Shown in pieces: positions 11,281 to 61,678 of a stretch of DNA of 64,000 nt (position 1 is its first letter; each line of letters begins with the position of its first letter). The notes under the pieces were generated by a model. It was not told the DNA's origin. It did no database searches and was given only the letters and a program-made list of their open reading frames with translations. This DNA is from Candidatus Poseidoniaceae archaeon (GTDB lineage: Archaea; Thermoplasmatota; Poseidoniia; Poseidoniales; Poseidoniaceae), in the NCBI GenBank assembly GCA_965662895.1, contig CBFIJH010000005.1, positions 57,928 through 121,927 of the forward strand, read 5' to 3'. The position numbers and the translations under genes were made by a program.

Positions 11281-14004
11281 ATGCTGAAGCAACGGACCGT
11301 TGTGTTAACACTCTTGTTGCTTCTTACCTTCGTTCCGTCCTATGCGACTGAAGGGACTGAAGATGAAATTGTTGAAAAGTTCGGTGTTGGATTCGATGAA
11401 GTAACCATTGCAGATTCCTCGGACTATCTCAACGATCCGCGAGATTTGGAATTCCATCCAGGTCGCGCCAATGAGTTGTGGATCGCCAATCGAGCGACAG
11501 ACAGCATTACCATCGTTGAAAACACGGGATTGTCGAATCAAACCTCTCAAAATCGAGCAGATTCAAACAGGAATCATTTCTTGGAAGAAGTGAGTGCGAT
11601 TTCCTTCGGCGCCTATCATCCTGAATTCGATTGGCAATGGGGTTCTGCCCAAGAAACTGGAAACACCTACTGCGGTCAAGCCCCTGCGAATTATTTCATG
11701 GGTCCGACTCTTTGGCCATCATCGTTGAATCATTTTGCTGTTGAGAACCAAAACAACGGCAATGGGCTCCTTGGTAGCCACATCGATATGAACCATGAAT
11801 CGCCATTCGGTGTTGGGATTGCACACGATTATGACAACGTTTACTGGTACAACGATGGCTACTACGGCGAACTGGTTCGATACGATTTCAAAGAAGATCA
11901 CGATACGGGCCAAGACGATCATTCCGATGCTGTCGTGCGTCGTTACACGGAAATTAGTCTCACACACTTCTACGGTATTCCAGGCCACATGGTGATGGAC
12001 AAATCGAATGGAATGCTTTACATCGCAGACGCTGGAGCAAACCGTGTTCTTTGGGTCAATACTGACGATACGACAACCACATCGACCAATATCATGGACG
12101 ATGCCTCGCGATTGGAACCGCTTGCAGAGTACTCAGAAATCACCGACGTTGAATGGGGGGTTCTTGCAACTGGACTCAACCTCCCATCAGGAATAGCACT
12201 CGCAGACGGCCAGCTCTTTGTCTCAGAGAACGGGAACGGCAAGATTGTCGCTTACGAACTGGCTTCCGATGGAAAGAGCGCTGTTGAACTTGACGAAATC
12301 CAGACGACTGCTACGTCCATCATGGGATTGGAAGTTGGACCAAATGGACATCTCTACTATGTTGATAATGGTCAAGATAAGGTCGTTCGAATCGACCCTT
12401 ACACCGATGAAGACGATGATGGTGTCGGCGATCAAGTCGACAATTGTCCGAGCATCGCAAATCCGTTGCAAGCCAACTTTGACAACGATTCAATGGGAGA
12501 TGTTTGCGATTCCGATGACGACAATGACTCGGTGCTGGATGTTGACGACCAATGCATCCTCGGCCAACTCGACTGGACGTCAACGATACTGAACGATCAT
12601 GATGGAGACGGATGTCTCGATGCGACGGAAGACTTGGATGATGACAACGATGGTGTTGCTGATCCCTCCGACCTATGCTCCACAGGTGACTTGGGATGGA
12701 CCTCATCACCCTCAACCGATTACGATGGGGATGGATGCCAGGATGCACTGGAGGATGTTGATGATGACAACGACAGAGTTTGCGATGCAAGTGATCTGAG
12801 CAGCTCTTGGGCTTGTACACCATCGACTGCGAACGTCGATCTCTGCCCTCAAAGCTCTCTCGGTTTCTTCTCAAACAATCAAAACGACGTTGATGGTGAC
12901 GGTTGTGAAGATGCCACTGAAGATACGGACGACGACAACGATGGTTTTGCTGATGACGTTGATGCTTGTCCATTGGATGCAGGAACAAGTTCGCTTGGTT
13001 TTGTTGTTGGTTGCAGCGATTACGATTCCGATGGGTACAGTGATTCCATCGATTTGTTCCCGACAGAGTCGACACAGTGGTTGGATTCAGATGGTGATGG
13101 ATACGGTGACAATCCAGATGGTTTCGAAGCAGACGCCTGCGCAAACGAATCAGGGCAGTCAACTGCGGATTCATTTGGATGTCCCGATGCGGACGGTGAC
13201 GGTTGGTCGAATCTCAACGATGCTTTCCCGAACGAAGTAACCCAACATTCTGATGAAGATGGTGATGGCTTTGGAGATGCCACGGACGGCTTTCAAGGGG
13301 ACGACTGTCTCGGTGTTCCTGGAACATCAACAAAGGACTTCTTTGGATGCTTGGACCCGGATGGTGACGGATGGTCGGATTTGAACGATGCCTTCCCTCA
13401 AGAACCAACACAACATACTGACGCTGATGGAGATGGTTACGGTGATAATGCAGAGGGAAATCTTCCAGATAGTTGCCCAGAACTGTACGGTCTTTCTTCC
13501 ATCGATCGGTATGGTTGTCCAGATAGCGATGGTGACGGGTGGGAGGATCGCTCCGATGCATACGTAAATGACGCTCGACTTTGGTCCGATAGAGATGGTG
13601 ATGGCTATGCCGGCCAACAAGGAACAAATCTTTCCGATGATTGTCCTGAGACGTATGGCACATCAATTCTTGATTTCCGAGGGTGCTTGGATTCTGATGG
13701 TGATGGCTGGTCCGATAAGACCGATGCGTATCCAAACGATGCGTCGAAGTATCTCGCTTCAGAAGAGGCACCAGAAGACAACGACTTCACGCTCCTAGGT
13801 CTTGGAATCGGAGTACTTGTTCTCGTGTTCCTCATGTTTGCTATCATGCGTAGGAAGACAACAGTAGAGCCAGAGTTTGGCTTCGCAGCCCCTCCAATTC
13901 CACAACCGCTTCCACGTGCACCGCCGCTTCCTCCAGAAGGCTTGCCAGCTGGTTGGACGATGGAGCAATGGATGGTCTATGGCGAGGATTATCAAAAACC
14001 GTAA
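11281..14004 (+). CDS. Large type-I cell-surface protein: NHL/SMP-30-like beta-propeller N-domain plus ~10 TSP3-like acidic Ca-binding repeats, a C-terminal TM anchor and a Pro-rich cytoplasmic tail
   Basis: Signal peptide MLKQRTVVLTLLLLLTFVPSYA. SD GAGGT 8 nt upstream. NHL-like blades: YIADAGANRVLWVN, LPSGIALADGQLFVSENGNGKIVAYEL, GPNGHLYYVDNGQDKVVRIDP. Repeats: C.D.DGDGWSD..DAFP.E.TQH.D.DGDGYGDN. TM helix LLGLGIGVLVLVFLMFAI followed by PPIPQPLPRAPPLPPEGLPAGW. Confidence 0.75.
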   Translation: MLKQRTVVLTLLLLLTFVPSYATEGTEDEIVEKFGVGFDEVTIADSSDYLNDPRDLEFHPGRANELWIANRATDSITIVENTGLSNQTSQNRADSNRNHFLEEVSAISFGAYHPEFDWQWGSAQETGNTYCGQAPANYFMGPTLWPSSLNHFAVENQNNGNGLLGSHIDMNHESPFGVGIAHDYDNVYWYNDGYYGELVRYDFKEDHDTGQDDHSDAVVRRYTEISLTHFYGIPGHMVMDKSNGMLYIADAGANRVLWVNTDDTTTTSTNIMDDASRLEPLAEYSEITDVEWGVLATGLNLPSGIALADGQLFVSENGNGKIVAYELASDGKSAVELDEIQTTATSIMGLEVGPNGHLYYVDNGQDKVVRIDPYTDEDDDGVGDQVDNCPSIANPLQANFDNDSMGDVCDSDDDNDSVLDVDDQCILGQLDWTSTILNDHDGDGCLDATEDLDDDNDGVADPSDLCSTGDLGWTSSPSTDYDGDGCQDALEDVDDDNDRVCDASDLSSSWACTPSTANVDLCPQSSLGFFSNNQNDVDGDGCEDATEDTDDDNDGFADDVDACPLDAGTSSLGFVVGCSDYDSDGYSDSIDLFPTESTQWLDSDGDGYGDNPDGFEADACANESGQSTADSFGCPDADGDGWSNLNDAFPNEVTQHSDEDGDGFGDATDGFQGDDCLGVPGTSTKDFFGCLDPDGDGWSDLNDAFPQEPTQHTDADGDGYGDNAEGNLPDSCPELYGLSSIDRYGCPDSDGDGWEDRSDAYVNDARLWSDRDGDGYAGQQGTNLSDDCPETYGTSILDFRGCLDSDGDGWSDKTDAYPNDASKYLASEEAPEDNDFTLLGLGIGVLVLVFLMFAIMRRKTTVEPEFGFAAPPIPQPLPRAPPLPPEGLPAGWTMEQWMVYGEDYQKP
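12418..13780 (+). repeat. Intragenic tandem TSP3-like repeats (~35-45-aa units)
   Basis: Repeated gatggtgatgg / gacggtgacgg blocks. These create long spurious His/Arg-rich antisense ORFs. Confidence 0.6.
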
Positions 14005-14034
14005 TTGCATCGAAACAAATCGATTATGACGATT

Positions 14035-14436
14035 CTAAACGTTCTCATTTTCCTGTGTAGGGGCTTGCACAACGACATAGGATTTGCTCTTTTTTGCAGA
14101 AATAATGGATTTAATCCCAACAACAAAGAACGCAATTGAAGAGAGCAAATGCAACAACATAATCCAAATGAGATCATTTCGAACGCCAATGATGTTTATT
14201 CCTACAGCGACCGTTCCTAATGCGGCAAATCCTCCAATGATGACAACAAATGGCCTAGTCACTGGGAAAATCACCAAAACAAAACCTATGATGTACAAAG
14301 GTGCGCAAATTAACGAAAATAATGTTGCTCCAAAGACTCCACAAGAGTCCGCATCTGCGCACATTGCACTTGCAGGTTGAGCTGTAAGCGTTAGAGCGCA
14401 CAGGCCACTGATAAGTAGCAAAGATAACTTCTTCAC
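14035..14436 (-). CDS. Hypothetical secreted/membrane protein (GTG start)
   Basis: Translating the printed sequence gives V-K-K-L-S-L-L-L-I-S-G-L-C-A-L-T-L-T-A-Q-P-A-S-A (a signal peptide) then a Cys-rich segment and 3 helices. The start codon is GTG, not ATG. Confidence 0.4.
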   Translation of the reverse strand: MKKLSLLLISGLCALTLTAQPASAMCADADSCGVFGATLFSLICAPLYIIGFVLVIFPVTRPFVVIIGGFAALGTVAVGINIIGVRNDLIWIMLLHLLSSIAFFVVGIKSIISAKKSKSYVVVQAPTQENENV

Positions 14437-14547
14437 GAATATTTTTTACAATCTTAGCAAATAAGTATATTCCCAAATTATTGAATTGGATGTCAAATAT
14501 GGCGGAACATTACAATCGCTAAAGTACTACAAGTTCCTAGTTTAATC

Positions 14548-14946
14548 ATGAGCAAGAAATTCTTCATCAAAATCGTAACTGACCCAGACGTTGATCTCCG
14601 CAAGTGTGTTGTTGGTGTTGCTTGCGCAGCCCAAGCCATCAACGATGGCCATGACGTTGCCGTCTTCTTTGCAGCAGACGGAGTAAAGATGATCCACACT
14701 GATTACATCAAGGGACTCAATGAACAAGGAAACTTTCCAGATGGAATGATTTACAATATGCTGAACGTTATCACAGAAGGAGCATCCAAGATTTACTGTT
14801 CAACAGGTTCTCAAGCAGCCAATGGTGTCACAAAACAGAACGCAGATGAAATCCTCCTTGAAGGCTACTCAGAGTGGATGACGTGGAGCGGGCCTCCCGG
14901 TGTAATTGAGCTCAGTGCTGCATCCGATGTCCAACTCGTCTACTAG
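14548..14946 (+). CDS. DsrE/DsrF-like (sulfur-relay fold) protein
   Basis: 132 aa. N-terminus FFIKIVTDPDVD...VGVACAAQAINDGHDVAVFFAADGV resembles DsrE/YchN-family openings. Conserved Cys at CSTG. Confidence 0.55.
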   Translation: MSKKFFIKIVTDPDVDLRKCVVGVACAAQAINDGHDVAVFFAADGVKMIHTDYIKGLNEQGNFPDGMIYNMLNVITEGASKIYCSTGSQAANGVTKQNADEILLEGYSEWMTWSGPPGVIELSAASDVQLVY

Positions 14947-15347
14947 TTTGAGTTCGACTTGATCGAGAGAATCTCCTCGGGAATTCTGTAGGTGTAAAGG
15001 AAATCTTTTCCAATGAGCGTTAGCGATTCGAGTGAATCATCGAATGCAACTTGGTGAAACGTTGAGCCAAGATTGTGTAGTGGCATGTTTGCTGCCATCT
15101 TTCCTTGCCTTGAGAGCGAAATTCCAGTAACAACATATGGTTCAATGGAGTTGAATAGCAAGATTTCCTCTGAAGTTTCGATTCGTCCCAATCCTTGAAA
15201 CATCCTGACAAAATATTCACTGATTTTGTCCCATTGTTCGATGGAGAAGTTCATGGTTAAACCATCATCCATCAACGTAAAGAGATTCTCTCTGTGTCGT
15301 AGCCTTGATGCACCACCGACGAGTGGGATGTCCATGGCCTCACTCAT
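14943..15347 (-). CDS. Hypothetical protein (uncertain)
   Basis: Fills the 380-bp gap between the DsrE-like gene and gpmA. Composition is normal and not low-complexity. No motif. Its 5' end would overlap the gpmA start inside a CCATGG palindrome. Alternative starts at 15335 or 15272. Confidence 0.3.
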   Translation of the reverse strand: MSEAMDIPLVGGASRLRHRENLFTLMDDGLTMNFSIEQWDKISEYFVRMFQGLGRIETSEEILLFNSIEPYVVTGISLSRQGKMAANMPLHNLGSTFHQVAFDDSLESLTLIGKDFLYTYRIPEEILSIKSNSN

Positions 15348-18091: not shown

Positions 18092-18568
18092 ATGCATCCA
18101 ACGTTGAAGAAAGCGCTCCTGTTGGGGCTTCTCATTGCCTCTCCATGGCTTTTGGTTCAAGCATGGATCTTTGTCGCTGCTCAAGATGAATCCATCTCAT
18201 CCATGGAAACCTGTCCCGAAGGAAGCGCAAATTGTGCTCATCTTGGGGGAAATGCTGATTATCGAATGGATGCCACTTCAACAATTATCGATCGATCGAT
18301 GGATGACATTCGGTCCGAATTATCCGATTATATCTCTGAATACGATTGCGAAATTCTTGTTGAGGATGTCTCGGATACATCCTATTATGTTCATTTTGTT
18401 GAACGTACTCCGTTTTGGCTTTTCCCAGATGATGTTTTGGTTTCCATTGAACAAATCGATGAAGATACGGTGGAAATTGAACTTCATTCTCAATCTCGAC
18501 TCGGAGTTGGAGATTTGGGTGTGAATCCAGAACGATTGGAAGACATTTACAATCAATTAACAGACTGA
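18092..18568 (+). CDS. DUF1499-like small secreted/membrane-anchored protein
   Basis: N-terminal hydrophobic helix, ~150 aa, FPDDV motif. Family call is from memory. Starts 3 nt after the AOR stop. Confidence 0.45.
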   Translation: MHPTLKKALLLGLLIASPWLLVQAWIFVAAQDESISSMETCPEGSANCAHLGGNADYRMDATSTIIDRSMDDIRSELSDYISEYDCEILVEDVSDTSYYVHFVERTPFWLFPDDVLVSIEQIDEDTVEIELHSQSRLGVGDLGVNPERLEDIYNQLTD

Positions 18569-19293
18569 ATCAAATCATCCCAGCCATATGGATAACCGCT
18601 CTCATCGATGAGCAGGACATTGACGCCCAATCCTGTTTTATGGAAGGCAATCAATTGAATGTCGTGGATGGAATGACCGGTTGGAGCAACGCCGAGAACA
18701 GGCAATTCTTTTCGTGAGAACCAAGATCGTGTTTTTGTGGGTGCTTTTTCTGTTCCAAGGCTACGACGCGTACCATCAACATCATCGAACCAAGGGAGTG
18801 GTCCTTCAGGTGTAAATCGCAAACCAAGAATCATGTCGACGCCTGTGGTTTCCTGTGCTGCATCTGTATCGGCTCCACTCGGGATGGCAGGCGCATTCGG
18901 GTGCGTGTGCAACCAGTGTGTAAATCGTCCTGCCCGAGAACCGCGTTGTCCTGAGAAGAGATCATCCGTCCATTCTTCTGGAAGGTGATGGACAGAATAC
19001 GAATCGCCACGATTGACCACGTGAGCTTCTTTGATGACGTATCCTTGACCTCCGAAGAGATTTGACACGTGTTCCTGCCCCTCAAACGCAGATTCGACTT
19101 CATCGATGTGTCTCCTCTTCGGGTCAACATCTAGGCCGACCAGAATTTCGTCTGGAAGCGATTGCAAAGCCCAAACGACGAGTTCGCGAAAAACTGGTCC
19201 AGGGAGGTGCAATTGTGCCGCATAGGAGTGCCGCATCGAATACGATTCAGCGTTGTACGAACGCATCGCATCAACCAACCACGCTTCGACCAC
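18553..19293 (-). CDS. JAMM/MPN+ (Mov34) family metalloprotease-domain protein
   Basis: JAMM motif HWLHTHPNAPAIPSGADTDA (H-x-H-x7-S-x2-D) with upstream PDEILVGLD (Glu of the E...HxH site). ~100-aa C-terminal extension. Confidence 0.65.
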   Translation of the reverse strand: MVEAWLVDAMRSYNAESYSMRHSYAAQLHLPGPVFRELVVWALQSLPDEILVGLDVDPKRRHIDEVESAFEGQEHVSNLFGGQGYVIKEAHVVNRGDSYSVHHLPEEWTDDLFSGQRGSRAGRFTHWLHTHPNAPAIPSGADTDAAQETTGVDMILGLRFTPEGPLPWFDDVDGTRRSLGTEKAPTKTRSWFSRKELPVLGVAPTGHSIHDIQLIAFHKTGLGVNVLLIDESGYPYGWDDLIQSVN

Positions 19294-19372: not shown

Positions 19373-20101
19373 ATGGCGAAGAAAAAACGAGGTGGCTTTG
19401 GCCGATTCCTCGGTGCCCTCACTGGGACGCCATACGAACGTCTTCTCAAGCAGGTCGAGAAACTTGCGAACGAACATGCGGACGATGAGCGCAAACTTGG
19501 AAAGGCACTGAAAAAACTCGTCGACGTTGTAGGGACCGCCTATGAAGAAGAAGAGATTGATGAGGATGAACATGATCTTGTTCTCGAAGCGATTGAGGAA
19601 GTTGATCCCAAAGGGCGCTCATTTCCGAAATTTGCTGAAGAAGATGCATTTTATGCAAACGATGCACCGGATGCCCCCGAACTCAATCTCGGGAAACGAA
19701 AGAACTTGGATGATTTAATGACTGCATCTGGAAAAGAATTCACTGGTAGTTTTGGCCGGGACGAATTCGATGAATTCAAAGCGCGGATGACTGAAGAGTT
19801 CTATGCAGAATCGGATGAGGCGATTCAGGCAGGCGACCATCAAGCCACCATTCGTACAGAGAATCGAGTGTTTACGGATGAAGAAGACGAACTTCAAAAT
19901 GTAAAGGCGATGATTTCTCAAGAGTCTGGCCTTGTCGATCCAACCACGGTCGAGGAAGAAGAGGAAGATTCCTTTGAAGACGATGAAAATTATTCCATCG
20001 ACGAGGATGGAACAGAGTGGTTCCAAGATGATGATGGCTATTGGTGGTACCGTCCAGAAGGTGAGCCTGACTGGCTACCATGGGAAGAGGACGAGGACTG
20101 A
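19373..20101 (+). CDS. Highly acidic hypothetical protein with a Trp-rich C-terminus
   Basis: Start trimmed to MAKKKRGGFGRF. Extreme D/E content. Ends ...EWFQDDDGYWWYRPEGEPDWLPWEEDED. Confidence 0.55.
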   Translation: MAKKKRGGFGRFLGALTGTPYERLLKQVEKLANEHADDERKLGKALKKLVDVVGTAYEEEEIDEDEHDLVLEAIEEVDPKGRSFPKFAEEDAFYANDAPDAPELNLGKRKNLDDLMTASGKEFTGSFGRDEFDEFKARMTEEFYAESDEAIQAGDHQATIRTENRVFTDEEDELQNVKAMISQESGLVDPTTVEEEEEDSFEDDENYSIDEDGTEWFQDDDGYWWYRPEGEPDWLPWEEDED

Positions 20102-26349: not shown

Positions 26350-27357
26350 GTGCCTCCAAACATGCCCAGCGTTCTTGTCACAGGCGGGTCGGGAATGCTT
26401 GGCCAACACCTCGTTCCGATGCTTATAGAGCATGGACATGATGTCCGTGCTCCAACCAGTCAAGAACTTGATCTTACGGATGCTGAAGCAACAATGGATT
26501 TTTTCAAAGACAAGCAAATCAGCATTGTAATCCATTGCGCAGCCTATGTTGCAGGTATTGCATCAAGTCAAACCATCAAACATCATTCTCTGGATCAAAA
26601 CATATCCATGGGTTTGAATCTCATACGTGCCTGTGTTCGAAATGGCATTTCAGATCTCATCAATGTCGGGAGTGCCACTGTCTACCCAAATGAAGCACCT
26701 CAACCTCTCTCCGAATCCTCAATTGGAAACGGCCCGCTCGAAGGCCCGATTGAAGGTTATGCCTTATCGAAATACGTCGTTTATCGAGCGTGTGCAATGG
26801 CCAATGAACAGCATGATGTTTCCTTCAAGACGATTCTACCTTGCAATCTGTTTGGTCCTTACGATAATTTTTCCTTGGAAACTGGGCACATGCTCCCAGC
26901 CATCTTGCATAGAATGCATCAGGCAAAACAGAGCAAGCAAGCATCTGTTACAATATGGGGTGATGGAACGGCCAAGCGAGAATTCCTTTACGCCCCAGAT
27001 TTCGCGGATTTCCTTTGTTTTGCTCTTGACAACTTCGATGCACTACCAGATGTGATGAACGTAGGCTCGGGTCTTGAGATAAGTGTCAATGAAATGCATA
27101 AACACATGGCTGATGTCATTGAGTTCACGGGCGATTTTCTCCACGATTTCGACAAACCGGTTGGCCGTCTTCGCAGATGTTTGGACTTGAAGCATCAACG
27201 GGCCTTGGGATGGGCTCCAAAGACGCCGTTTAAACAAGCCTTGGAATCAACCTACAATTATCTCCTTGATCGCTTTCATGAAAGTCCTATCTGGAGAAAA
27301 GATGCTACATCCTATTCGCAAAGTTGTTGGAGCCGAAGTAATTCGTCAAATGATTGA
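26350..27357 (+). CDS. NAD-dependent epimerase/reductase, GDP-L-fucose synthase-like
   Basis: Rossmann motif VLVTGGSGMLGQHL. The HDVRAPTSQELDLTD spacing resembles GMER/Fcl. Y...K expected downstream of YALSKY. Confidence 0.7.
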   Translation: MPPNMPSVLVTGGSGMLGQHLVPMLIEHGHDVRAPTSQELDLTDAEATMDFFKDKQISIVIHCAAYVAGIASSQTIKHHSLDQNISMGLNLIRACVRNGISDLINVGSATVYPNEAPQPLSESSIGNGPLEGPIEGYALSKYVVYRACAMANEQHDVSFKTILPCNLFGPYDNFSLETGHMLPAILHRMHQAKQSKQASVTIWGDGTAKREFLYAPDFADFLCFALDNFDALPDVMNVGSGLEISVNEMHKHMADVIEFTGDFLHDFDKPVGRLRRCLDLKHQRALGWAPKTPFKQALESTYNYLLDRFHESPIWRKDATSYSQSCWSRSNSSND

Positions 27358-27382
27358 TGAATGGGCGCATCGTGGTTTGTCC

Positions 27383-28351
27383 ATGGGCAAGGCATCCAGG
27401 CAAAGGATTGTTTTGTCGCTCTTGCTCGTATTTCTTCTCCTACCATTTTCTGTGACTGGGGAAGATGAATCCACTTGGCAAAGCAATGGTATTGATCCTT
27501 CAAATTGGAGCGACGGCCCTCTCGTTGAAGACACGCCGATGCAATATTCCTATTTTGGAGACCCAGTGTTTGCCATCGATGTTACCTACATACCGGGCCA
27601 CCTCCAAGACGAGGTATCCGGAACAATCATCATCGAACTGTTTCCACAATGGGCGCCAATAACGGTCGAGAACATGATTCAACACATCGAAGATGACCTT
27701 TACGATGGAATCTTTTTTCATCGAGTCATCAATGATTTCGTAACACAATCCGGCGATCCTGAATGCAAAACAAATGGTGCCTACATTCCAGGCTTGCCTG
27801 CTCAATGCGGTAGTGGAGGAACTGGGGAAACCATTCCGCTTGAGCACAACGAAAATCTCAGCCATGTCGATGGCGCAATTGGGATGGCTCGTGGAAATGA
27901 GGAGGATTCGGCAGATTCGCAATGGTACATTGCTGAAACGGAAGCACACGGGCTTGATCCCGAAAACCGTGACGATGGAGGCTATGCTACCTTTGGAATT
28001 GTCCGTGATGGAATGAGTCATGTGCGAGCGATAGCAGAAATTCCGACATCGGACGACCCATCTGGTACGGACTTGGACAATCCATTCTCTACAGCAGGAA
28101 GACCCCTCTACGAGACAAAAATCAATAGCATAGAAATGATTGGTATTGCCGACCCTGAAGGTCAACTTTCGGGGGAAATCTCGAGTGGAGAAGCCGATTC
28201 TGGCAACGGAACAACCATTCTCTTCGTCGTGCTGTTCGTCGTCCTTGCTCTCGGTATTGCTTACATTGTTGTCCAGAACAACGTGAAACAAGATGCTCCG
28301 GTTTACGATGCTGAATTGATTGACGAAAATGAAACGTCCAATACGACGTGA
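27383..28351 (+). CDS. Cyclophilin-type peptidyl-prolyl isomerase, extracytoplasmic and membrane-anchored
   Basis: Start at MGKASRQRIVLSLLLVFLLLPFSVTG (signal peptide). Cyclophilin core FHRVINDFVTQSGDP...GAIGMARG. C-terminal helix TILFVVLFVVLALGIAYIV. Confidence 0.75.
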   Translation: MGKASRQRIVLSLLLVFLLLPFSVTGEDESTWQSNGIDPSNWSDGPLVEDTPMQYSYFGDPVFAIDVTYIPGHLQDEVSGTIIIELFPQWAPITVENMIQHIEDDLYDGIFFHRVINDFVTQSGDPECKTNGAYIPGLPAQCGSGGTGETIPLEHNENLSHVDGAIGMARGNEEDSADSQWYIAETEAHGLDPENRDDGGYATFGIVRDGMSHVRAIAEIPTSDDPSGTDLDNPFSTAGRPLYETKINSIEMIGIADPEGQLSGEISSGEADSGNGTTILFVVLFVVLALGIAYIVVQNNVKQDAPVYDAELIDENETSNTT

Positions 28352-29471: not shown

Positions 29472-32400
29472 ATGGAAGAACGGCCAGTATGGAAAGGGCG
29501 ATTTTTGGCACTGTGTTTCACCGTGTTTTTTGCAACCCCCATACTTGCACCGTTTGCCTCTGCAGACGGTATGACAACCTGTGATGGCGTACCCGGTTTC
29601 AGTGATTGCGATGATTATGATTCAAACGATGATGGAACACCCTTTCAACAAGATTGGATTCGTGGAACGTACGATTTCGATTTGCAAGATACTTCAACAA
29701 TCCAAATGACATTGAGTTGGGCGGTGCGTGAATTCGATCGCAGCAAAGTCGGTCTCGATGATTCGACGACGAGTACTGCTCTCGCAAATGATGGATTGGA
29801 TGAGGATGATGGGATTCCAGCTGATATGATTCGAACCTACTTCGCCTACGAACCCAGCCCAGGAGCTGGTACCGTTGGTGACCAAATGTTGGACGACGTT
29901 CAAGATACAATCAGCGAACTCCTCTCGAGTGGATTCGGAACCGTTACAGCAATCAACACACAATACGATGGAATTTATTCCGAGGGAGGAAACACCGAGA
30001 TTTGTACGACCGATGCAAACGAAGACTCGGTCTACGATTCTGGCTCGGGCGTTACGGAGAACAACGTCTTCGACCCGCCCATTTGCTTCTCGACCATTGC
30101 CGAGATTCAGTTATCAACAAGCACATTCAATTTACTTGAAAATACGGACCTTGAACTTGAACGTGCGTATCAAGGCCTGCTTATTATGGGTTCAGAATTG
30201 ACAACGCAATTCAACGTCTTTGCAGAACCCGGTCACGTCTCAACCTTCTCGATTCATCCTCCGAATTATGCCACGGTCGTCGGTGTCGATGGAAACGGTT
30301 CCATCGTTCCTAATCCTTGTACAGTGGCGACCTGCGCAGGTCAGTGGACAGTGGAAAATCTGAACGCAGGTACAGATGCGTCTCGTGCCGAACAAACGGT
30401 CAGTTTGACCATGGGATATCGAAACACCTCGACAACGTCCATTGTCGAACTCGATCCGAACAAAGAGGCCGTATCGCTCCATCTCAAGGTGGATTTATTT
30501 GACGAACAAGAGGTTCAAATCGACTTCGTTGCAGGTATCAACTATCTTGATACGACAACAATGGACAATTGGGGCATTTCTCTCGTAGAATTATCCGAAT
30601 TAGCAACCATTCCTCAAATTACCTCCGATGGAATTCGTTTAGCGTATGAAAACGGAATCGCTCCTCTCGACGATTTCACCGATCAATTCCCAGTTGCATC
30701 GATTGGCGATGCGTTTTCAGCATCTATCCCAGGATCGCCTGACATTCAGATGGGACAATTATCATGGGTAAGTGATTCAGTCGCTGAGGGAATTGATGGG
30801 CCGGCTGGAGGATTGAATTACAGTCATTCCGTTGGCTGTTCTGAAACTGTGACACCACCGAACACAATCTCCTACTGTATCGAAGGACCCAGTGCTATGG
30901 GTTACGACCATCCAATCTATCTCCGTTCAACGAGCAACACGTTTGATCTTGGGTTGCTGGACCTCATTCAAGAGAATATACCGGATTCTGAATTCGAACT
31001 GGATGGTAAAACATACAACACGAAGGATTATTTTGAACTTATTACGAACGAAGACCTTCGAAGGCTGATGGATGCTGGTTTGTCGATTGAAACGGTCCTT
31101 GATACAGATTTCCTCGAAACCATGATTCCGTCTGATCTTCCACCGTCAAAAATTACACTTGAACTGATTCTACCGAGTTGGATTGTAACCGCCGATGGTT
31201 CTGACCGCATCATCCTTGAACACTCAGCATCAGGTGAAACCAGGAATGAAATCTCAATTGCAGGACCTTCTCCTTACACCTATAATCATCCAATCCTCAA
31301 TGAAGACGGTGAAACCATTTGTTTGCAAACGCAGAAGACCTGTGTTTCAACATCCCTATCCATTGATTTCGAGACCTTCGACATCAACGAATGGACGAAA
31401 TCTGTTTCCATTGAGTTTGGCCTTGAAGCCACTGCAGTTGTTCACCGAATCGCTGTTCCACAGGGGTATTACGACGTGAATGACACAACTGTCCGCATGG
31501 AGGTCATTCCAAGCGATTTAATCCGGTTGATTGGGGATATTATGAGTCGTGATGAGGAAAAAGCAATCTCCATCGAACGATGCCTTGAGTCAAACATAAA
31601 AAATTCCAATGCCTGTCCTGAGGAAAGTAGGCTTCAATTCAATCTTACATCCGATGGTTTGATGCAATTTGGAACCGATGCTGGAGAACTTCTCACACAC
31701 CAGATTCACACGCAGGTTGAAAAACTAGAAACGAGTGACGAAGGGCCTGAATTCTCGGAGGTTGACATCAGTGATTTTGTCATTGAAACGAGCCTTGCAG
31801 GACTTGGAAGTCCAGGACAAACCGTTTCTGATGAAGTGGGCCTAAGCGTGAGTCTCAAGATTCCAAAAGTTCGATTTACACTGGCTGTATCGAGCCCATG
31901 GGGCGATTTACTGAGTGGCGATCCTGACGCAATAACGCTCTCACTTCTTACCGAGGACATCAGTGGTGCTTTCCGTTCACCACTGCTTCAACCCATGGTC
32001 ATGATGGTCGATGAAATGTCGTCGATGATGACAGCAAGCCTTGTTTCATCAGAGGGAATTACATTCCCGCCGCTCGAGCAGGAAGCATTGATTGTTGAAA
32101 CAGGTTCTTGGGATACGACAATTCACGAAGATACGGAATTTGATTTGACTGGACCGGTCAGTTTCACGTTACCAAAAGGCATCATCGTCAAAGAGGGAAC
32201 ATCTACGCAAGGAAACATGATCATCACCGAAGATGATGAAGGGCGTCAAGTCATTACGTACACAATTCCGCCGGACGGTCTCGATGATGAAGTAACACTT
32301 CGGCTTCAAGTAACGTGGATGTATCTGCTTGGTCAATTTTGGGCTTATCCGGCTGTTGTTGTTATTCTGCTCATCCTTCTGATACGGCGTCGCCGCAAGA

Positions 32401-32579
32401 AGAAAAAGAAAAAGCGAGCTGCTAGAGAAGCAAAGAATTCACTGTACAAGGCCCAGAAGATGGGCTTATCGGAGTCCGACTTCGCTCAAATGGCTGGATC
32501 GGTTGACCGTCAAGTCGGAGGATACGATGAGGGAATCAATCCATTTGAAGCGATGCAACGTGAACCGCCTCAACCTTAG
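29472..32579 (+). CDS. Large secreted cell-surface protein (1035 aa) with a C-terminal TM anchor and polybasic tail
   Basis: Signal peptide ...FATPILAPFASADG. No recognisable repeat family. C-terminal helix YPAVVVILLILLI followed by RRRRKKKKKKR. Confidence 0.65.
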   Translation: MEERPVWKGRFLALCFTVFFATPILAPFASADGMTTCDGVPGFSDCDDYDSNDDGTPFQQDWIRGTYDFDLQDTSTIQMTLSWAVREFDRSKVGLDDSTTSTALANDGLDEDDGIPADMIRTYFAYEPSPGAGTVGDQMLDDVQDTISELLSSGFGTVTAINTQYDGIYSEGGNTEICTTDANEDSVYDSGSGVTENNVFDPPICFSTIAEIQLSTSTFNLLENTDLELERAYQGLLIMGSELTTQFNVFAEPGHVSTFSIHPPNYATVVGVDGNGSIVPNPCTVATCAGQWTVENLNAGTDASRAEQTVSLTMGYRNTSTTSIVELDPNKEAVSLHLKVDLFDEQEVQIDFVAGINYLDTTTMDNWGISLVELSELATIPQITSDGIRLAYENGIAPLDDFTDQFPVASIGDAFSASIPGSPDIQMGQLSWVSDSVAEGIDGPAGGLNYSHSVGCSETVTPPNTISYCIEGPSAMGYDHPIYLRSTSNTFDLGLLDLIQENIPDSEFELDGKTYNTKDYFELITNEDLRRLMDAGLSIETVLDTDFLETMIPSDLPPSKITLELILPSWIVTADGSDRIILEHSASGETRNEISIAGPSPYTYNHPILNEDGETICLQTQKTCVSTSLSIDFETFDINEWTKSVSIEFGLEATAVVHRIAVPQGYYDVNDTTVRMEVIPSDLIRLIGDIMSRDEEKAISIERCLESNIKNSNACPEESRLQFNLTSDGLMQFGTDAGELLTHQIHTQVEKLETSDEGPEFSEVDISDFVIETSLAGLGSPGQTVSDEVGLSVSLKIPKVRFTLAVSSPWGDLLSGDPDAITLSLLTEDISGAFRSPLLQPMVMMVDEMSSMMTASLVSSEGITFPPLEQEALIVETGSWDTTIHEDTEFDLTGPVSFTLPKGIIVKEGTSTQGNMIITEDDEGRQVITYTIPPDGLDDEVTLRLQVTWMYLLGQFWAYPAVVVILLILLIRRRRKKKKKKRAAREAKNSLYKAQKMGLSESDFAQMAGSVDRQVGGYDEGINPFEAMQREPPQP

Positions 32580-34407: not shown

Positions 34408-36591
34408 ATGCTGACACCAGCCATGTTGCGGATTTTGCGTTGGTTGGATGACCACCCAACCACGCTCGAATCGGCTTGGGACGTCCCACGAACCATCTCA
34501 TTGGAAGGCATCGCCGACGGAATTGGTGTTGTTCGTTCTGCCCTTTTTCAGCCAATGAGCGTACTGGAAGATAACGAATTCCTAAAAACCAGACAAGCCC
34601 ATGTACTTGGATCAGGGCGCAGAAAACGGAAAGTTGTCCACATTACTGAAAAGGGACGCCAACAACTTCGAGAACAGGTGGAAAACCTCCCCGAGCGACG
34701 TTCAAGAGAATCGTTGAAGTTGAAAGGACAGATTCCTGAATGTACGAATTTGCACGGGCGTCAGTCTGAACTGGAATTGATGAAAAAATCCCTGGAGCAG
34801 AAAAGACCGATTCATCTACGAGGGATGCCGGGAATTGGCAAATCGACGCTCGCTCGTACCATGGTTCAGGAATTGGCTGAACGAGGAACAGAAATCCACT
34901 GGGCGGTTCTCGACGCCTACTGCGACGTGCATGAGGCGATGCAACGAATGGAGGTCGATTCACCAAGAATTCTTGAGGTTGAACATTATGCTAACATATT
35001 CGAAACCGAGAACGTTGTTCTGGTGTTTGATGATGTGCATACCATTTCTTCAAGACACAAATCATCCTTCCTCAGCTTCTTTCAAACACTCCTGAACAAC
35101 AACATCGCCTTCATGTTGATTGGAAGAGATCGAGAAACATTCTCAATCGAAGCAACCGTTGTTGATTTGGGACCGTTGGACCAATCCGATGCAATTGAAT
35201 TACTGGACCCTGAACTCGGCGAGAACAGAGCGTCAATTGTTGAAACATTGGGTGGTCACCCGCTTGCGATTTTGCTCTACAATGTCTCGACTCCACTTCC
35301 AGAGACGGATCAAGACGTTCGAGCCTACGTTGAACAGGTTGTGCTTGAACATGCCTCAACAGAGGTCCATGATGCAATGCAACCCTTCCTTGTCTTGCCA
35401 TTTCCAATCCCTGCAATGCGGATGCCCGAACCTGACCACGTTCCATTGCTCGATGAACACACGCTGTTGCGTTGGGGCGCACAGAATTCGGCAATGGAGA
35501 TGCAACATCTCATTCGCAACGTTTGTCGTTCTTCTCTTGAAGAATCTGATATTGATGCTCTCCATCAGTCTGCTATTTCACACTGGGAGAACGACGACGA
35601 CGCACTTGCGAAGATTCTTGAATTGCATCATCGGATTCAGAGAGGTGAAACGAATGTTTCAGTGCATTTGTCGCAACGCGCAAATGAATTGATGAATGCC
35701 CATTCGGGTGCTTTCGCAACTCTTTTGGATGAAGCTTTGGTCAATGAAAATGTGAACCTCGAATTGATTGAACTTGCCGCACAACATGCATTAAATCGGG
35801 CTGAACTTAACACTGCTAAAGAATACATCAAGGAGTTTGATGACCCTCGACTCGCCAACATCCGATTTCAGATTGCCCAGTATGAGGGAAAGAACGACGT
35901 CGTTCAACACTTGGAATCTTTGACCGATGGAATCGATGATCCGAATCAAAAATTACGTGTTCAACTTTCTGTTCTCTCTCGCAGCATTGATGACCTTACA
36001 CCACAGGCGACCGAGGATGACCATCGCCGCATCCATGGACTGCTCGAACGCGTCGATCTTCCTGACAAAGAAGGCGAACGCCAACGCATTTTGACCACAA
36101 TTGTCGTCATGCGACATGCGCTTGCCCTTGAACAGAGAGATTTCAATGCTGCAAATTTTCTTCTCGATCAATTGAAGAATATTGCGTTAACAGACGATCC
36201 TCTTCTTCACTATCTTTCAACAAAAACGGAACTGAAAATGTTGGAAAAAGGCTCTGCAGATGCTGCATTTACCTTGAAGAATGCAGAGCGTATCGCAACA
36301 CAGTTGAAACATCCGCTGTACAACGTTTCACTTTTCTTACTGCTTTGCGAACATCTTGTTGAAACGCAACCCCAGCGTGCTCAACTTCTCCATGAACAAA
36401 TCGATATCCAGGCCATTGAAACAATGACCGCACCATCAGCACGTCGAATCGTTGCGAAATGGTGGGAGGTGAAGTCGATGGTTGACGAGAAAGGTCGAAT
36501 TCTTGCACTGCGGGAAGCCATTCTTCGTTATCGTTCAGTAGGATGCCCAAACCGTGCTCGAAGGTTATCCAAGCGCTTGCACAGCCTGTGA
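34408..36591 (+). CDS. wHTH-STAND-type P-loop NTPase regulator (N-terminal winged helix, AAA_16-like ATPase, C-terminal helical/TPR-like)
   Basis: N-terminal ~100-aa wHTH, Walker A LRGMPGIGKSTLART, Walker B VVLVFDDVH, then ~400 aa of helical repeats. Divergent from uvrC. Confidence 0.65.
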   Translation: MLTPAMLRILRWLDDHPTTLESAWDVPRTISLEGIADGIGVVRSALFQPMSVLEDNEFLKTRQAHVLGSGRRKRKVVHITEKGRQQLREQVENLPERRSRESLKLKGQIPECTNLHGRQSELELMKKSLEQKRPIHLRGMPGIGKSTLARTMVQELAERGTEIHWAVLDAYCDVHEAMQRMEVDSPRILEVEHYANIFETENVVLVFDDVHTISSRHKSSFLSFFQTLLNNNIAFMLIGRDRETFSIEATVVDLGPLDQSDAIELLDPELGENRASIVETLGGHPLAILLYNVSTPLPETDQDVRAYVEQVVLEHASTEVHDAMQPFLVLPFPIPAMRMPEPDHVPLLDEHTLLRWGAQNSAMEMQHLIRNVCRSSLEESDIDALHQSAISHWENDDDALAKILELHHRIQRGETNVSVHLSQRANELMNAHSGAFATLLDEALVNENVNLELIELAAQHALNRAELNTAKEYIKEFDDPRLANIRFQIAQYEGKNDVVQHLESLTDGIDDPNQKLRVQLSVLSRSIDDLTPQATEDDHRRIHGLLERVDLPDKEGERQRILTTIVVMRHALALEQRDFNAANFLLDQLKNIALTDDPLLHYLSTKTELKMLEKGSADAAFTLKNAERIATQLKHPLYNVSLFLLLCEHLVETQPQRAQLLHEQIDIQAIETMTAPSARRIVAKWWEVKSMVDEKGRILALREAILRYRSVGCPNRARRLSKRLHSL

Positions 36592-37069: not shown

Positions 37070-37167
37070 AATGTCCGCTTGAGCAGAAGGGTCTTATCGC
37101 TTTGGTTTCGTTTTTCGGTGAACATGCAAAGGGTGCTTTCAAATGGTATCGCTTTGGATTATACAAT

Positions 37168-40100
37168 ATGGAGAGGCAAAAGCGGTTCTTTGCCCTTGGT
37201 TTGTTGCTGCTTCTCCTGATGATGTCCATGGCGCCCATGGTTCAATCCTTTCACGATTCGCAGGGGAAGCCAACTGCGGTTTCAGGACGCGCTACGACCA
37301 CATGGTCCGGTACGGTGACATTGACGAGCGATTATTTTGTGAACGTTCAAGATGAACTGCTGATTACGTCGTGCACAAGTGTTGTTCTGTCTCCAGGGAT
37401 CCGAATTTACATCGATGGACGTTTGACCGTTCAGGGAACTCCTACGTGTCCGATTGTTCTGTCAAGTTCTTCGTCCACAGGCGATCATGAAGGAATACAA
37501 TTCAATTCCTCGTCGTTTGGTCGTGGTAGTACAGTGAACCACCTTCACATTGAGGATGCGATTTATGGGATTACCATGTATGGCTCAAATCCGATTTTGA
37601 ACAATGTGACCATCTTCAATCCGGACCGTGTTGGCATCGATATGTTTGGAAGCTCAAGCCCAGTCATTCGAGACTTGCATGTGGAACAGGCTGGTCGCTC
37701 CGTTGGGTTCCAGAATGATTGGCGTTACGGCATTGGATTGTCCGTTGGCGACGGATCAACACCGATTGTTCAAGGAGCATATTTCACCGACCACCAATTG
37801 CGAGGTCTCAACTTGTGGGGCGCATCTGGAGGTATTTATCGGGACATTGTCATGGACAACATATCGGGCTCCGTTCTTGGAGAGGTGGCGGGAGTATGGG
37901 TCGAAGACAGCGTTCCACTGTTCGAAAATTTAACCATCGATAAAAGCGACACGGGCATCATCGTTCGACACATTGACGATTCGGGGTATACGCGTGGTGT
38001 TTTTAGGGACGTCGACATATCGAACAGTATGTTTCGTGGCGTTTATTTGGACAAAAACAACCACACGAATTACACCAATTACGAAACAGCAGATTTCACC
38101 AATCTTACGGTCAGAGGAACTGGTTCATCTGGGGCAACGTCCCCCGGAATTGCGCTTGCAGCTATCGACATTAACGCAACAGGCGCATGGCTTGAGAATG
38201 TCCTTGTAGATGACGCATCGTCTGTCGGCATCCGAATGTTCTTTGTTGATTCAACGACCACACTCCGAAATGTGACCATACGTGACGCTGGTGAAGTTGG
38301 ACAAGGTGCACATTCAGCGGGATTAAGCATCCAAACCTCTTACTTTGCTGCACATGTTGAAGATCTTGAAATCAGTGGCTCCCCCGGGCCAGGTGTTCAT
38401 TCGTCCAGTGGTGGCTCTCTTCAGGGGTCCGACTGGAATCTTCACAACAACTCAGAACATGGCTTGTTCATCGATTCTGCAACTGTTGTTGTTGACGGAA
38501 TCTCGACGATGAAAAATGGATATTCGGGCGTTCATGTGTTTGACTCGCGTTATGTGAGCATTTCAAATCTAACCTCTGTCAACGATGGTGATCTTGGTTC
38601 GGACGCTATGGAACAAGCGGGTCTTTCGTACCAAAAATCCAACGATTTAGAAACAAACTCAGGAGATGTTGTTTGTAGGAATTGTCACGTTGAATCCTCG
38701 CAAGGCCATGGTGTCTACGTTCGTGATTCCGTTGACCTTTGGCTGCACAACCTTTCGATATCGGACATCGACCCAACACTTCCAGCAATGTACGTCGATA
38801 ACGGAGGCTTGACGCTTGGCACACAAGGTGGACGCATCAATCTCTTCAATTCACAGATCGAGCATGAATCAACAACGCAACATGCCTTGTACATTCAACA
38901 AGCAGCGGGTCATATCGATGGACTATCATTGATTGGAAATCACAGTGGAATCTATTGGGATGCAAACCATAACGGGAATTTCCCATCGACATTAAGCAAT
39001 ACTGAATTTGTAGGCAGTGAATGTCTCAAACTTGTGAATCATCCCGACCTTGGAGGTTATGGAAATACGATCGGTTCGGATTGTGAAGGACGGATATGGG
39101 TCGAAAATTCCGATGTGAATTTCTCCAATTTGGTTGATGTAAGTGGTACACACATTTTGGACCTTGATGCAGCATCAACCATGCATTTGCATCAACCCAG
39201 TAACATTGATCTCACGATTGCAAACATTCCATCAGGCGCATCCATCGACGTTGCTTGGGATGTTACCGTGTGGGTTGTAAACAATCTCTCCAACGGCATT
39301 CCAAATGCCTATGCCAACGTGAGTTTCACACAATTTGAACCATCTGTGTCGGAGTTTACCAACGATATTGGTGTTGTACAATTGATCGATTTCATTGGAC
39401 AACGTTGGACGAATTCTGGTGCATCGGCCATGAATGATGTTGCTGTTGAATGCGGTTATGATAGCGAGAGCAACACTACGACGGTAAGTTTGGATGGTGA
39501 CAAAGTGATGTATTGTGTTCTCGAATTGGACAACCAACCCCCATTTTTGAACTGGACTTCACCGATGGACGGGGATGTGTTCCCTTCACAGGGACAGGTT
39601 TTGTTTGATGCTCAAGAGTCCTGGGATTTGGACGACGATCCTCTCACACTCACGTGGACTTCCTCCCTTGATGGCGTCATCTCATCAACACAAAGCACGG
39701 CCCCGTTTACGGTCAACGATGGCGTATCTGGGATTACGCTTAGTGATGGTATTCATGATATAACGCTGGACGTTTGTGACAATGCTGGACATTGTGTATC
39801 AGAAACACGTACAATCGAATTAACGAATCTCGCTCCGGAACTCAACGTGTCCTTTGAACCGGGCCTGACCCAGTGGAATGAACTCATTATGCCTCAAACG
39901 GGAACGGTCACCATCAATACGACAGGGACATTTGACCCTGAAGGTGATGATTTTGCTTGTACAATTTCCTTTGGAGGGTACAACCGACAAGGTACTGGAT
40001 GGGGCAATCAATATGTCTGTCCAGAGTTGTTGACGTACACCTTTGATCATTATTCGGACGACCCACCAGCATCGTTCTTCTTGAACGTCGTTGCATTTGA

Positions 40101-60399: not shown

Positions 60400-61678
60400 G
60401 ATTCCGTTCTTCCTCGTGTTGCTGTTCCTTTTCCCTGCCGCAAGTACAATGAATGTCAGCGCTGAGGCTGACGCTGGTCTCGAAGAGTTGGGCATTGCAA
60501 TGGTTGCCCTCCGAAACGACACGCTCGACTTGAATCAAGATGGTGATGTTGATGCAGTTCGTGTGGTTGTTATCCTCAATTCCACAATGGAGTCGATTTA
60601 CATCGATGTCCGATTGATTGCAACGCACAACGATCGAGAAGTTATCGAGTCATCAACCATTGAAGTGATCGGTCAGACCAATGCAAGTCTGACGTACGAT
60701 GCATGGTCGCGAGGTGAACATGAGCTCTTGTTGGGTTTCTATGATATGAACGGGGCAGAAATTTCGATGATTGAACTACCGACCTATGAAATGGTTCCAG
60801 CATTGCAGACGCCGATGCTCTCTCTCCAATTGAATGGGAACATGAATTTGCAAACAGGTTCAAGTTGCGAGATTACTCGAATGTTTGCAGATGAAACCGG
60901 CCCACGATATGGTGCCATTGGAACATTGACCTTCACTGGTGCCCCCTTCATCGTTCTCGATAATGCTACCAACATCGATTGCTCAAGTTGGCCCGCTGGC
61001 GAATATTTGCTCCGTGAAACTTATCGAAACGAACTTGGTCAAACTGCTGAAACATCGCTCAATCTGACCATCGAAAATCGACCCGCACCCGCCTTCGATT
61101 TGGTCGTTACGGGCGATGGATTGACAACCGACAGGTCGTGTTTGGTCGCACTGCAACCCGTCGATTCGAATGAAGATTTTGAACAGTACACCAAGGAATG
61201 GGATGTCTCAACCACGTCGATGACTGGTGATGGAGCCGTCTACGACTGTTCGAGTCTACCTGCTGGTGTTCATCTCATTGTTCTCAAAGTCACCAACCTA
61301 GAAAACATCGCAAGTACGCAAGCTGTCAACATCGTCCGATTGCCCGCTGATGAACTGACTGCTGAAGAACAGGAAACACTCCCCAGTCAATCGTTTGGTG
61401 AGGATACGGCAACCGAACAAGTTGGTTGGTACACCATTGGCGTACTCGGATTACTTGTTGCGATCGCCGTTTTTGTACTTCTGGTTCGAATTCGTGAGGA
61501 TGATGACCTTCTCTCTTTGCCTGAGCTTGGACCGGCTCCGCAGATTCTGAACGATGGATCACCCGACCCTGAAGGATTGCCTACGGTCGTTGATGATGAT
61601 GGGCAATTATGGCGAAAGCATCCAGACGGTTCACTTGATTGGTGGGATACAACCTACAACATTTGGCAGAAGTGGTGA
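60383..61678 (+). CDS. Secreted type-I membrane-anchored protein with Ig-like beta-rich ectodomain (hypothetical)
   Basis: Signal peptide MTMMRKIPFFLVLLFLFPAASTMNVSA. C-terminal helix WYTIGVLGLLVAIAVFVLLV. Tail LPELGPAPQ...PDPEGLP...WWDTTYNIWQKW. Overlaps the upstream gene by 17 nt. Confidence 0.6.
   Translation: MTMMRKIPFFLVLLFLFPAASTMNVSAEADAGLEELGIAMVALRNDTLDLNQDGDVDAVRVVVILNSTMESIYIDVRLIATHNDREVIESSTIEVIGQTNASLTYDAWSRGEHELLLGFYDMNGAEISMIELPTYEMVPALQTPMLSLQLNGNMNLQTGSSCEITRMFADETGPRYGAIGTLTFTGAPFIVLDNATNIDCSSWPAGEYLLRETYRNELGQTAETSLNLTIENRPAPAFDLVVTGDGLTTDRSCLVALQPVDSNEDFEQYTKEWDVSTTSMTGDGAVYDCSSLPAGVHLIVLKVTNLENIASTQAVNIVRLPADELTAEEQETLPSQSFGEDTATEQVGWYTIGVLGLLVAIAVFVLLVRIREDDDLLSLPELGPAPQILNDGSPDPEGLPTVVDDDGQLWRKHPDGSLDWWDTTYNIWQKW

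Follow-up and report, generated by a model that had tools for sequence, protein, structure and literature searches.

Surface proteins of uncultivated archaea are usually described by their extracellular domains, and the locus studied here raises the question whether their cytoplasmic ends carry conserved signals of their own. The window, a stretch of 64,000 nucleotides from a Candidatus Poseidoniaceae archaeon (assembly GCA_965662895.1, contig CBFIJH010000005.1, positions 57,928 to 121,927 of the forward strand), contains at positions 13780-14004 the 3' end of a 907-codon gene, which encodes the membrane anchor and the 51-amino acid (aa) tail of a surface protein. An initial annotation had proposed that proline-rich PEGLP or PEGEP strings together with tryptophan motifs form short linear motifs for one common partner in the tails of this protein, of three further surface proteins (848, 431 and 1570 aa) and of a soluble acidic protein of 242 aa. 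Poseidoniales, also known as Marine Group II (MGII), are among the most abundant archaea of the surface ocean, and their large surface proteins are thought to serve particle attachment and polymer degradation; to our knowledge, no member has ever been cultured. Our analysis identified the C-terminal 27 aa of the 907-aa protein as a copy of a tag, termed module A, that recurs on unrelated surface proteins throughout the order. Two further classes of C-terminal tag, modules B and C, were recognized on other proteins encoded in the window, and all three are almost certainly real, conserved features. The reading that we favor, with a probability of about 0.5, is that module A may act as a tethered docking peptide.

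The gene calls of public contigs give an identical product of 907 aa, and the names carried by homologues of the window's proteins point to Candidatus Poseidoniaceae of Marine Group IIa. Its N-terminus is signal-like (MLKQRTVVLTLLLLLTFVPSYAT) and its ectodomain consists of an NHL-type propeller and thrombospondin-type-3-like acidic Ca-binding repeats, to which the matches in Pfam (NHL/TSP_3) and NCBIfam (MtsC-like TSP3) are confined. Behind the transmembrane (TM) helix and the stop-transfer cluster RRK, the tail comprises 48 aa, TTVEPEFGFAAPPIPQPLPRAPPLPPEGLPAGWTMEQWMVYGEDYQKP, the end of which is module A (Table 1). An Rfam scan of positions 13000-15000 yielded no matches to RNA families. Searches with the tails and with the whole proteins revealed no tail match in Pfam (2025 copy, E ≤ 10) or in NCBIfam release 20 (E ≤ 1), and the searchable literature on GWTMEQW and on cytoplasmic tails, archaeosortase and surface proteins of Poseidoniales contained nothing relevant.

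Module A was first exposed by a homology search with the tail alone, which returned nine short fragments with the common ending ...PPLPPEGLPxGWTMEQWxxYGxxYL and divergent tails upstream of it. This search was unusable for counting because its word index returned only short fragments. Copies were therefore counted by a DNA scan with the back-translated heptapeptide GWTMEQW against 596 Gb containing one genome per prokaryotic species, which detected at least 120 loci. The number expected by chance in the whole collection is approximately 17, calculated from 17 fixed bases and 2 purine positions over 1.19 × 10^12 positions. Among the matches listed, 117 of 120 loci belong to metagenome-assembled genomes of the Poseidoniales type; the other three are bacterial, internal in their proteins and devoid of the flanks of module A, and thus represent chance matches. 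Altogether, at least 118 copies were found in at least 117 Poseidoniales loci from at least 100 assemblies, and at least 17 assemblies contain two or more loci among the matches listed. The hosts include Poseidoniaceae, Thalassarchaeaceae and the original MG-II assembly CM001443.1, and thereby both MGIIa and MGIIb. Since the variants GWT[EALK]EQW, GWSMEQW and GWTMDQW are present in adjacent paralogues, the count obtained with the exact pattern is an underestimate.

The consensus of module A is [GA]PP[LVI]PxxG[LI]PxGWTMEQWxxYGxx[WY]L, followed by 4-7 residues and the stop codon. Positions outside the search pattern are near-invariant among the 118 copies, both on the N-terminal side (P-10 in 108, P-9 in 103, L-8 in 94, P-7 in 117, G-4 in 117, L-3 in 113 and P-2 in 117) and on the C-terminal side (Y+9 in 117, G+10 in 118, [WY]+13 in 115 and L+14 in 97). 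The stop codon lies 9-14 aa beyond the heptapeptide in 103 of the 117 copies that reach one, and 12 of the 117 run on for 39-50 aa past the motif. At the invariant residues P, L, G, T, E, Q and Y the full set of synonymous codons occurs, and nucleotide identity is 0.79 at codon positions 1 and 2 and 0.40 at position 3. This saturation of synonymous sites indicates selection on the peptide rather than on a DNA or RNA element, and it speaks equally against recent gene conversion. Module A is thus conserved by selection at the peptide level.

In 112 of the 118 copies a TM helix lies 34-147 aa upstream (median 77), and the remaining six are cut N-terminally by a contig end. With 51 aa behind the TM helix, the tail of the 907-aa protein is shorter than those of the 112 other carriers (53-177 aa), and lysine and arginine are enriched after the helix (2.3 per 10 aa) compared to the sequence before it (0.27 per 10 aa). 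An N-terminal hydrophobic segment was detected in 53 of 55 full-length carriers, and exactly one later TM helix in 47 of them. The order of elements is TM helix, basic cluster, variable spacer and tag, with spacers that are rich in proline (13.6%), alanine (12.2%) and glutamine and contain no cysteine. By hydropathy and the positive-inside rule, we infer that the carriers are type-I proteins with a cytoplasmic tag. Each membrane protein considered in the initial annotation likewise combines a signal-like N-terminus with a single C-terminal TM helix that is followed by a basic cluster, so that the annotation's placement of the tails in the cytoplasm is upheld on these indirect grounds. At least 11 ectodomain clusters, which differ in Pfam content, were distinguished among the carriers; they include an S8 subtilase, PKD/CARDB proteins, TSP3 adhesin-like proteins, an arylsulfotransferase-like propeller and several types without any Pfam domain. 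For module A itself, AlphaFold2 (AF2) applied to an alignment of nine sequences predicted an extended proline segment followed by a helix over MEQWMVYGEDYQ, with a predicted local distance difference test score (pLDDT) of 71.

Several additional regularities were observed in the carriers of module A. Tandem carriers are common, with two tagged genes in one 8-kb locus (L020, L044, L083, L113, L119 and L120), the second of which in most cases escapes the exact pattern because its heptapeptide is a variant. Ten carriers of approximately 1200-1350 aa (L020, L041, L044, L048, L074, L081, L083, L113, L114 and L119) extend about 43 aa past module A and typically end in ...(S/N)xLLDDLDL/F-COOH, an acidic and leucine-rich second C-terminal tag stacked behind the first, which can be likened to eukaryotic acidic-dileucine or clathrin-box strings. 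Between the TM helix and module A, 26 of 112 tails from two ectodomain clusters contain the motif LPxxDxx-ANSMYGGxxE[IL]FQQP (for example L004, L006, L016-L018, L034, L038, L046, L078 and L103). Further spacer motifs specific to single families are YEDNLSATYGAVAAAP and EELIPxGSALxSGxxxERRAAALxTSxSGEV.

The 431-aa membrane protein and the soluble 242-aa protein share a different C-terminal element, module B. Throughout orthologues of 55-97% identity, the tail of the 431-aa protein is more conserved than its ectodomain and follows the pattern LGPxPxILxDGxPDxEG[LM]PTxxDDxGxLWRxxPDGxxDWWDxxxxIWxxW-COOH. The 242-aa product is the same in public gene calls, has no Pfam or NCBIfam family and no meaningful relative in a profile search of the PDB. 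Its family is conserved over the full length, and 56 distinct orthologue C-termini conform to YS[IV]DE[DN]G[VT]EWFEDEDGYWW[YF]RxxGxxDWQxY. The C-termini of both families can be aligned via the invariant residues D, G, W, G, WW and W. Searched with a profile of module B, a set of 1.84 billion representative proteins yielded 88 matches at E ≤ 0.001, almost all of them at the extreme C-terminus and nearly all in single copy. In most of the 88 matched clusters, the module ends the tail of a giant FG-GAP or CBM96 protein. The long carriers are type-I proteins in which such an ectodomain precedes a TM helix, and an acidic spacer connects this helix to module B; only the 242-aa family is soluble. Module B is about 33 aa long and has spaced tryptophans and a DG turn, and many copies end in W-x-P. 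AF2 modeled the copy of the 242-aa protein with a pLDDT of 87.6 as four short antiparallel strands forming a Trp-rich β-meander, and module B is thus predicted to be a small folded domain, in disagreement with the description of all these elements as short linear motifs. When this model was used for a fold search, the best matches were single propeller blades (NHL blades of PknD and the designed Pizza proteins) at non-significant scores. Beside the tag, we observed that the N-terminus of the 242-aa protein, MAKKK(R)GGFGRFLGA[IL]TGTPYERLLKQV (19373-19460), is near-invariant in the family; this basic and hydrophobic stretch could be a membrane-targeting or partner-binding segment. At other loci, giant FG-GAP proteins bear module B.

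Module C, KLDWENV-COOH, ends the tail of the 1570-aa protein. Fourteen orthologues of 68-87% identity have [KVT]LDW[DE][NA]V at the very end of the protein, and the acidic spacer before it varies, so that module C is a third tag with a layout like that of modules A and B. The same orthologues keep a juxtamembrane motif, EMK[ILM]ID[ST]W[GDN][VT]FG[DN]G. The tail of the 848-aa protein is poorly conserved: among the protein of the window and three orthologue tails, only a core of the type LPDLAIPLPP, LENLPPLP or LSDLPPIP persists, and a tryptophan motif is absent. The tails are long and patterned, as reported in the initial annotation, and they are under selection. The coordinates of all elements are summarized in Table 1.

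Table 1. Positions in the window of the tail elements described and of the genes that encode them.
Feature	Position	Strand	Remarks
Gene for 907-aa type-I surface protein, carrier of module A	11281-14004	+	Open reading frame (ORF) and translation
Single C-terminal TM helix LLGLGIGVLVLVFLMFAIM (13792-13848), then stop-transfer cluster RRK	13792-13857	+	Kyte-Doolittle peak 2.86, aa 838-856
Short Pro-rich spacer TTVEPEFGFAAPPIPQPLPRA	13858-13920	+	Counterpart of the 34-147-aa variable Pro/Ala/Gln-rich spacers of other carriers
Module A of the 907-aa protein, PPLPPEGLPAGWTMEQWMVYGEDYQKP, final 27 aa	13921-14001	+	Q at the last consensus position, where L is usual
Gene for soluble acidic 242-aa protein	19373-20101	+	No TM helix; N-terminus MAKKKRGGFGRFLGALTGTPYERLLKQV conserved
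Module B, copy 2, YSIDEDGTEWFQDDDGYWWYRPEGEPDWLPWEEDED, C-terminus of the 242-aa protein	19991-20098	+	AF2 and orthologue alignment
Gene for 1570/1606-aa beta-helix/PKD surface protein	37165-41877 (longest ORF from 37057)	+	TM helix 41686-41742
Juxtamembrane motif EMKIIDSWGVFGDG, tail of the 1570-aa protein	41767-41808	+	Kept in 14 orthologues, 68-87% identity
Module C, KLDWENV-COOH, C-terminus of the 1570-aa protein, behind variable acidic spacer	41854-41874	+	
Gene for 848-aa surface protein	57853-60399	+	TM helix about 60187-60243
Proline core LPDLAIPLPPPP, tail of the 848-aa protein	60343-60378	+	Tentative
Gene for 431-aa type-I membrane protein	60383-61678	+	TM helix 61436-61492
Conserved linear stretch LGPxPxILxDGxPDxEGLP, tail of the 431-aa protein	61508-61579	+	
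Module B, copy 1, PTVVDDDGQLWRKHPDGSLDWWDTTYNIWQKW, extreme C-terminus of the 431-aa tail	61580-61675	+	Local hidden Markov model (HMM) 45 bits; kept in all orthologues

We propose that the 907-aa protein is exported via Sec and anchored at its C-terminus, and that its last 27 aa would present a copy of the order-wide tag to the cytoplasm. Module A may be built from a polyproline-type segment, PPLPxxGLPxGW, that leads into a short aromatic amphipathic helix, TMEQWxxYGxxWL, near the C-terminus, and a flexible spacer that varies in length and sequence would tether this unit to unrelated ectodomains. In Poseidoniales, the tag could be bound by a shared factor, either cytoplasmic or membrane-peripheral, that would thereby sort, position, cluster or turn over surface proteins, and the other tails may follow the same logic with different tags, module B on the 431-aa and 242-aa proteins and module C on the 1570-aa protein. 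Recognition by a common factor is favored because near-invariance, location at the extreme C-terminus, a flexible cytoplasmic spacer and unrelated ectodomains together represent the anatomy of a docking peptide. Consistent with this interpretation, the conserved peptide is combined with a low-complexity linker that differs between carriers in both length and sequence, and modules B and C are independent tags with a matching layout. It is from this anatomy that we infer the existence of a partner and a biological role of the tags. Several points weigh against docking. A partner was not found, and no gene recurs beside the carriers, the commonest cluster of non-carrier neighbors being present at only 24 of 117 loci. 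The AF2 model of module A is of moderate quality, based on nine sequences, and the topology was deduced from hydropathy and charge distribution. Seven consecutive invariant residues would also fit the substrate of a catalytic site or a function in the nascent chain, and the 64-kb window contains a single copy of module A.

Compositional chance in low-complexity tails can practically be dismissed as an explanation of modules A, B and C. The tails are indeed rich in proline, alanine or acidic residues, and the PEGEP string of the 242-aa protein as well as most of the 848-aa tail behave as expected from such a composition. However, the three modules are kept across orthologues of 55-97% identity and on unrelated carriers with synonymous sites saturated. 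The strings quoted in the initial annotation are all present in the five genes concerned, and the window has three occurrences of PEG[LMIVE]P in its six frames, all of them in the C-terminal regions from which these strings were taken. In 100,000 within-tail shuffles, neither PEG[LE]P in three tails nor PEGLP in two tails was ever reproduced, which demonstrates a non-random signal in the tails. The restriction of PEG[LE]P to three C-terminal regions might suggest a single PEGLP/PEGEP plus tryptophan motif with one partner for all five proteins, and xEGLP is in fact kept by the 907-aa family as well as by the 431-aa family. As originally formulated, this idea is nevertheless largely refuted and improbable. 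The five tails resolve into at least three unrelated conserved C-terminal modules, and the tails of the 848-aa and 1570-aa proteins are devoid of the motif. PEGEP, a lineage-specific accident, is not kept in the 242-aa family, most orthologues having EEGQD or EPGQD. The sequences that follow GLP are unrelated, with a predicted helix in module A and a predicted β-meander in module B, and the HMMs of the two modules did not cross-match in approximately 1 Mb of Poseidoniales DNA. What survives of the proposed recognition signal common to surface proteins and the soluble acidic protein is the occurrence of module B on both, in place of one motif for all.

Other explanations accept module A as a functional unit and differ in the function that they assign to it. 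The module might be a sorting or processing signal by which a dedicated membrane-associated enzyme, analogous to sortase, archaeosortase or rhombosortase, would cleave or re-anchor the surface protein, so that docking would be combined with removal of the tag. A strictly C-terminal, lineage-restricted element with several copies per genome and many unrelated ectodomains would suit such a signal, but we consider this unlikely because the elements (TM helix, basic cluster, long spacer, motif) are in inverted order relative to every known tripartite signal, and no gene for a candidate enzyme recurs next to the carriers. In agreement with the initial annotation, the tails also do not qualify as PGF-CTERM signals: the sequence before the TM helix of the 907-aa protein reads ...EDNDFT-LLGLGIG... 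and contains no PGF, the tail behind it has 51 aa, and neither PGF-CTERM nor any other CTERM model of NCBIfam matched at E ≤ 1. It also seems doubtful that module A functions without a partner, as an aromatic helix that lies at the cytoplasmic membrane interface or self-associates, so that the tail loops back and clusters proteins or senses curvature. Trp and Tyr abound in the predicted helix (WxxxxWxxYxxxW), and its consensus has a hydrophobic moment of 0.34, a value in the top 3.6% of shuffles. However, this moment is modest, mean hydrophobicity is only about -0.09, and the copy in the window has a moment of 0.21, which is reached by 32% of shuffles. Near-invariant polar T, E and Q residues and the PPLPxxGLP segment would be unexpected in a lipid-binding helix, and folding back to the membrane would not require spacers as long as 147 aa. 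Module A and its trailing residues together measure about 30-35 aa, which is near the length of the ribosomal exit tunnel, and this invites the idea of a Pro/Trp-containing pausing or arrest sequence that delays termination until the translocon has handled the large ectodomain and the TM helix. The presence of PPxP, the proline directly before the stop codon in the copy of the window and the exclusive occurrence on exported membrane proteins are compatible with such a role, yet it is highly improbable. Known arrest peptides such as SecM, MifM, VemP and TnaC reside in small regulatory ORFs of their own instead of terminating dozens of structural proteins, 12 of the 117 copies run on for 39-50 aa beyond the motif, and a proline stretch is missing from modules B and C despite their matching layout. 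Docking of module A to a common factor therefore remains our preferred interpretation. A more far-reaching version of it is a cytoplasmic 'tail code' of Poseidoniales with at least three classes of tags (A, B and C), in which module B would read or couple the PPLP-type segments of module A and of tails such as that of the 848-aa protein, or in which single blades from several tails and the 242-aa protein would form a propeller-like ring; this is quite speculative and rather unlikely.

Among the other genes in the window, those around the 848-aa and 431-aa proteins form a conserved group. The order in 57853-63162 is 848-aa protein, 431-aa protein, Lnb_N-domain protein, thiamine pyrophosphokinase (opposite strand) and an FG-GAP giant of more than 2000 aa, and it is conserved in relatives down to 56% identity (L125-L129). 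The start of the 431-aa gene at 60383 overlaps the stop of the 848-aa gene at 60399. Divergently upstream of the 242-aa gene, a 246-aa protein (18553-19293, reverse strand) has a weak match, HTHPN...SGADTD, to Prok-JAB (JAMM/MPN metalloprotease-like) with 23.1 bits, which is just below the Pfam cutoff of 25. Another type-I protein of 1035 aa (29472-32579, forward strand) has an unusually long basic run, RRRRKKKKKKR, after its TM helix and a 64-aa tail (approximately 32385-32576) that ends in ...GYDEGINPFEAMQREPPQP. The gene at 27266-28351 (forward strand) encodes a cyclophilin-type peptidyl-prolyl isomerase with a signal-like N-terminus, a C-terminal TM anchor and an untagged tail of 25 aa, which is apparently displayed outside the cell. 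At 34408-36591 (forward strand), a 727-aa protein with a winged-helix-like N-terminus and a STAND/AAA_16-type NTPase region is encoded among surface-protein genes and is possibly a signal-transducing regulator.

A near-invariant cytoplasmic tag on many surface proteins would imply a new aspect of cell biology, in which the surface proteome is handled from inside by sorting, anchoring, clustering or turnover. The tags provide a sequence handle by which the surface proteome of any MGII genome can be catalogued, they can be used as bait peptides for the discovery of partners without cultivation, and they are candidates for new Pfam or NCBIfam models. If a 'tail code' did exist, it could take the form of a scaffold beneath the membrane by which adhesins, integrin-like FG-GAP giants and exo-enzymes are linked, and would thereby be an archaeal analogue of adaptor/receptor-tail systems that is not derived from eukaryotes.

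Resemblances of the tags to known domains and motifs outside the prokaryotic signals were followed as leads. WW domains (PF00397) are similar to module B in length, spaced tryptophans and a DG turn, and PPLP-type cores such as those of module A and the 848-aa tail resemble class II ligands of WW domains; both likenesses serve as leads. Identity of module B with a WW domain was rejected, as there was no Pfam match at E ≤ 10 and the PDB sequences gave only chance matches to TRPV2 at E of about 5, and the four strands of the AF2 model with their non-significant matches to propeller blades did not support a WW fold either. Unlike the blades of beta-propellers, which form a closed ring of 4-10 tandem repeats, module B occurs as a single C-terminal copy in nearly all of the 88 matches. 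The interpretation of module A as a truncated pair of WW strands, in analogy to the YAP sequence 'LPAGWEMAKT...', is not supported, as AF2 predicted a helix and not a hairpin. Tail motifs of eukaryotic type-I proteins (NPxY of integrins, YxxPhi and acidic dileucine) have in common with the tags that they are short conserved cytoplasmic motifs on surface proteins, including FG-GAP integrin-alpha-like ones, and the subfamily of module A carriers with the ending LLDDLDL/F can be compared to acidic dileucine motifs. This analogy is purely architectural, and we know of no adaptor, clathrin-like or cytoskeletal partner in Poseidoniales.

Among prokaryotic systems, PGF-CTERM/archaeosortase, LPXTG/sortase, PEP-CTERM/exosortase and GlyGly-CTERM/rhombosortase resemble module A in being lineage-restricted, C-terminal and present in several copies per genome on many unrelated surface proteins. 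In these signals the motif lies outside, before the TM helix, and the protein ends in a short basic cluster, whereas module A is located behind the TM helix, the basic cluster and a spacer of 34-147 aa. With its TM helix, spacer and C-terminal tag, the layout thus runs opposite to that of every prokaryotic C-terminal sorting signal described, and because neither the order of elements nor the PGF motif of these signals was found, the modules do not belong to any described family of C-terminal sorting signals. The NWETF peptide of E. coli chemoreceptors, which recruits CheR and CheB, the C-terminal peptide of FtsZ and the C-terminal tip of SSB are tethered docking peptides, and they share with module A a short, conserved and often aromatic extreme C-terminus, a variable flexible linker and the location on the cytoplasmic side. 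Each of these docking peptides belongs to one protein family and has known partners, in contrast to module A, which is 27 aa long and is found on at least 11 unrelated extracellular families.

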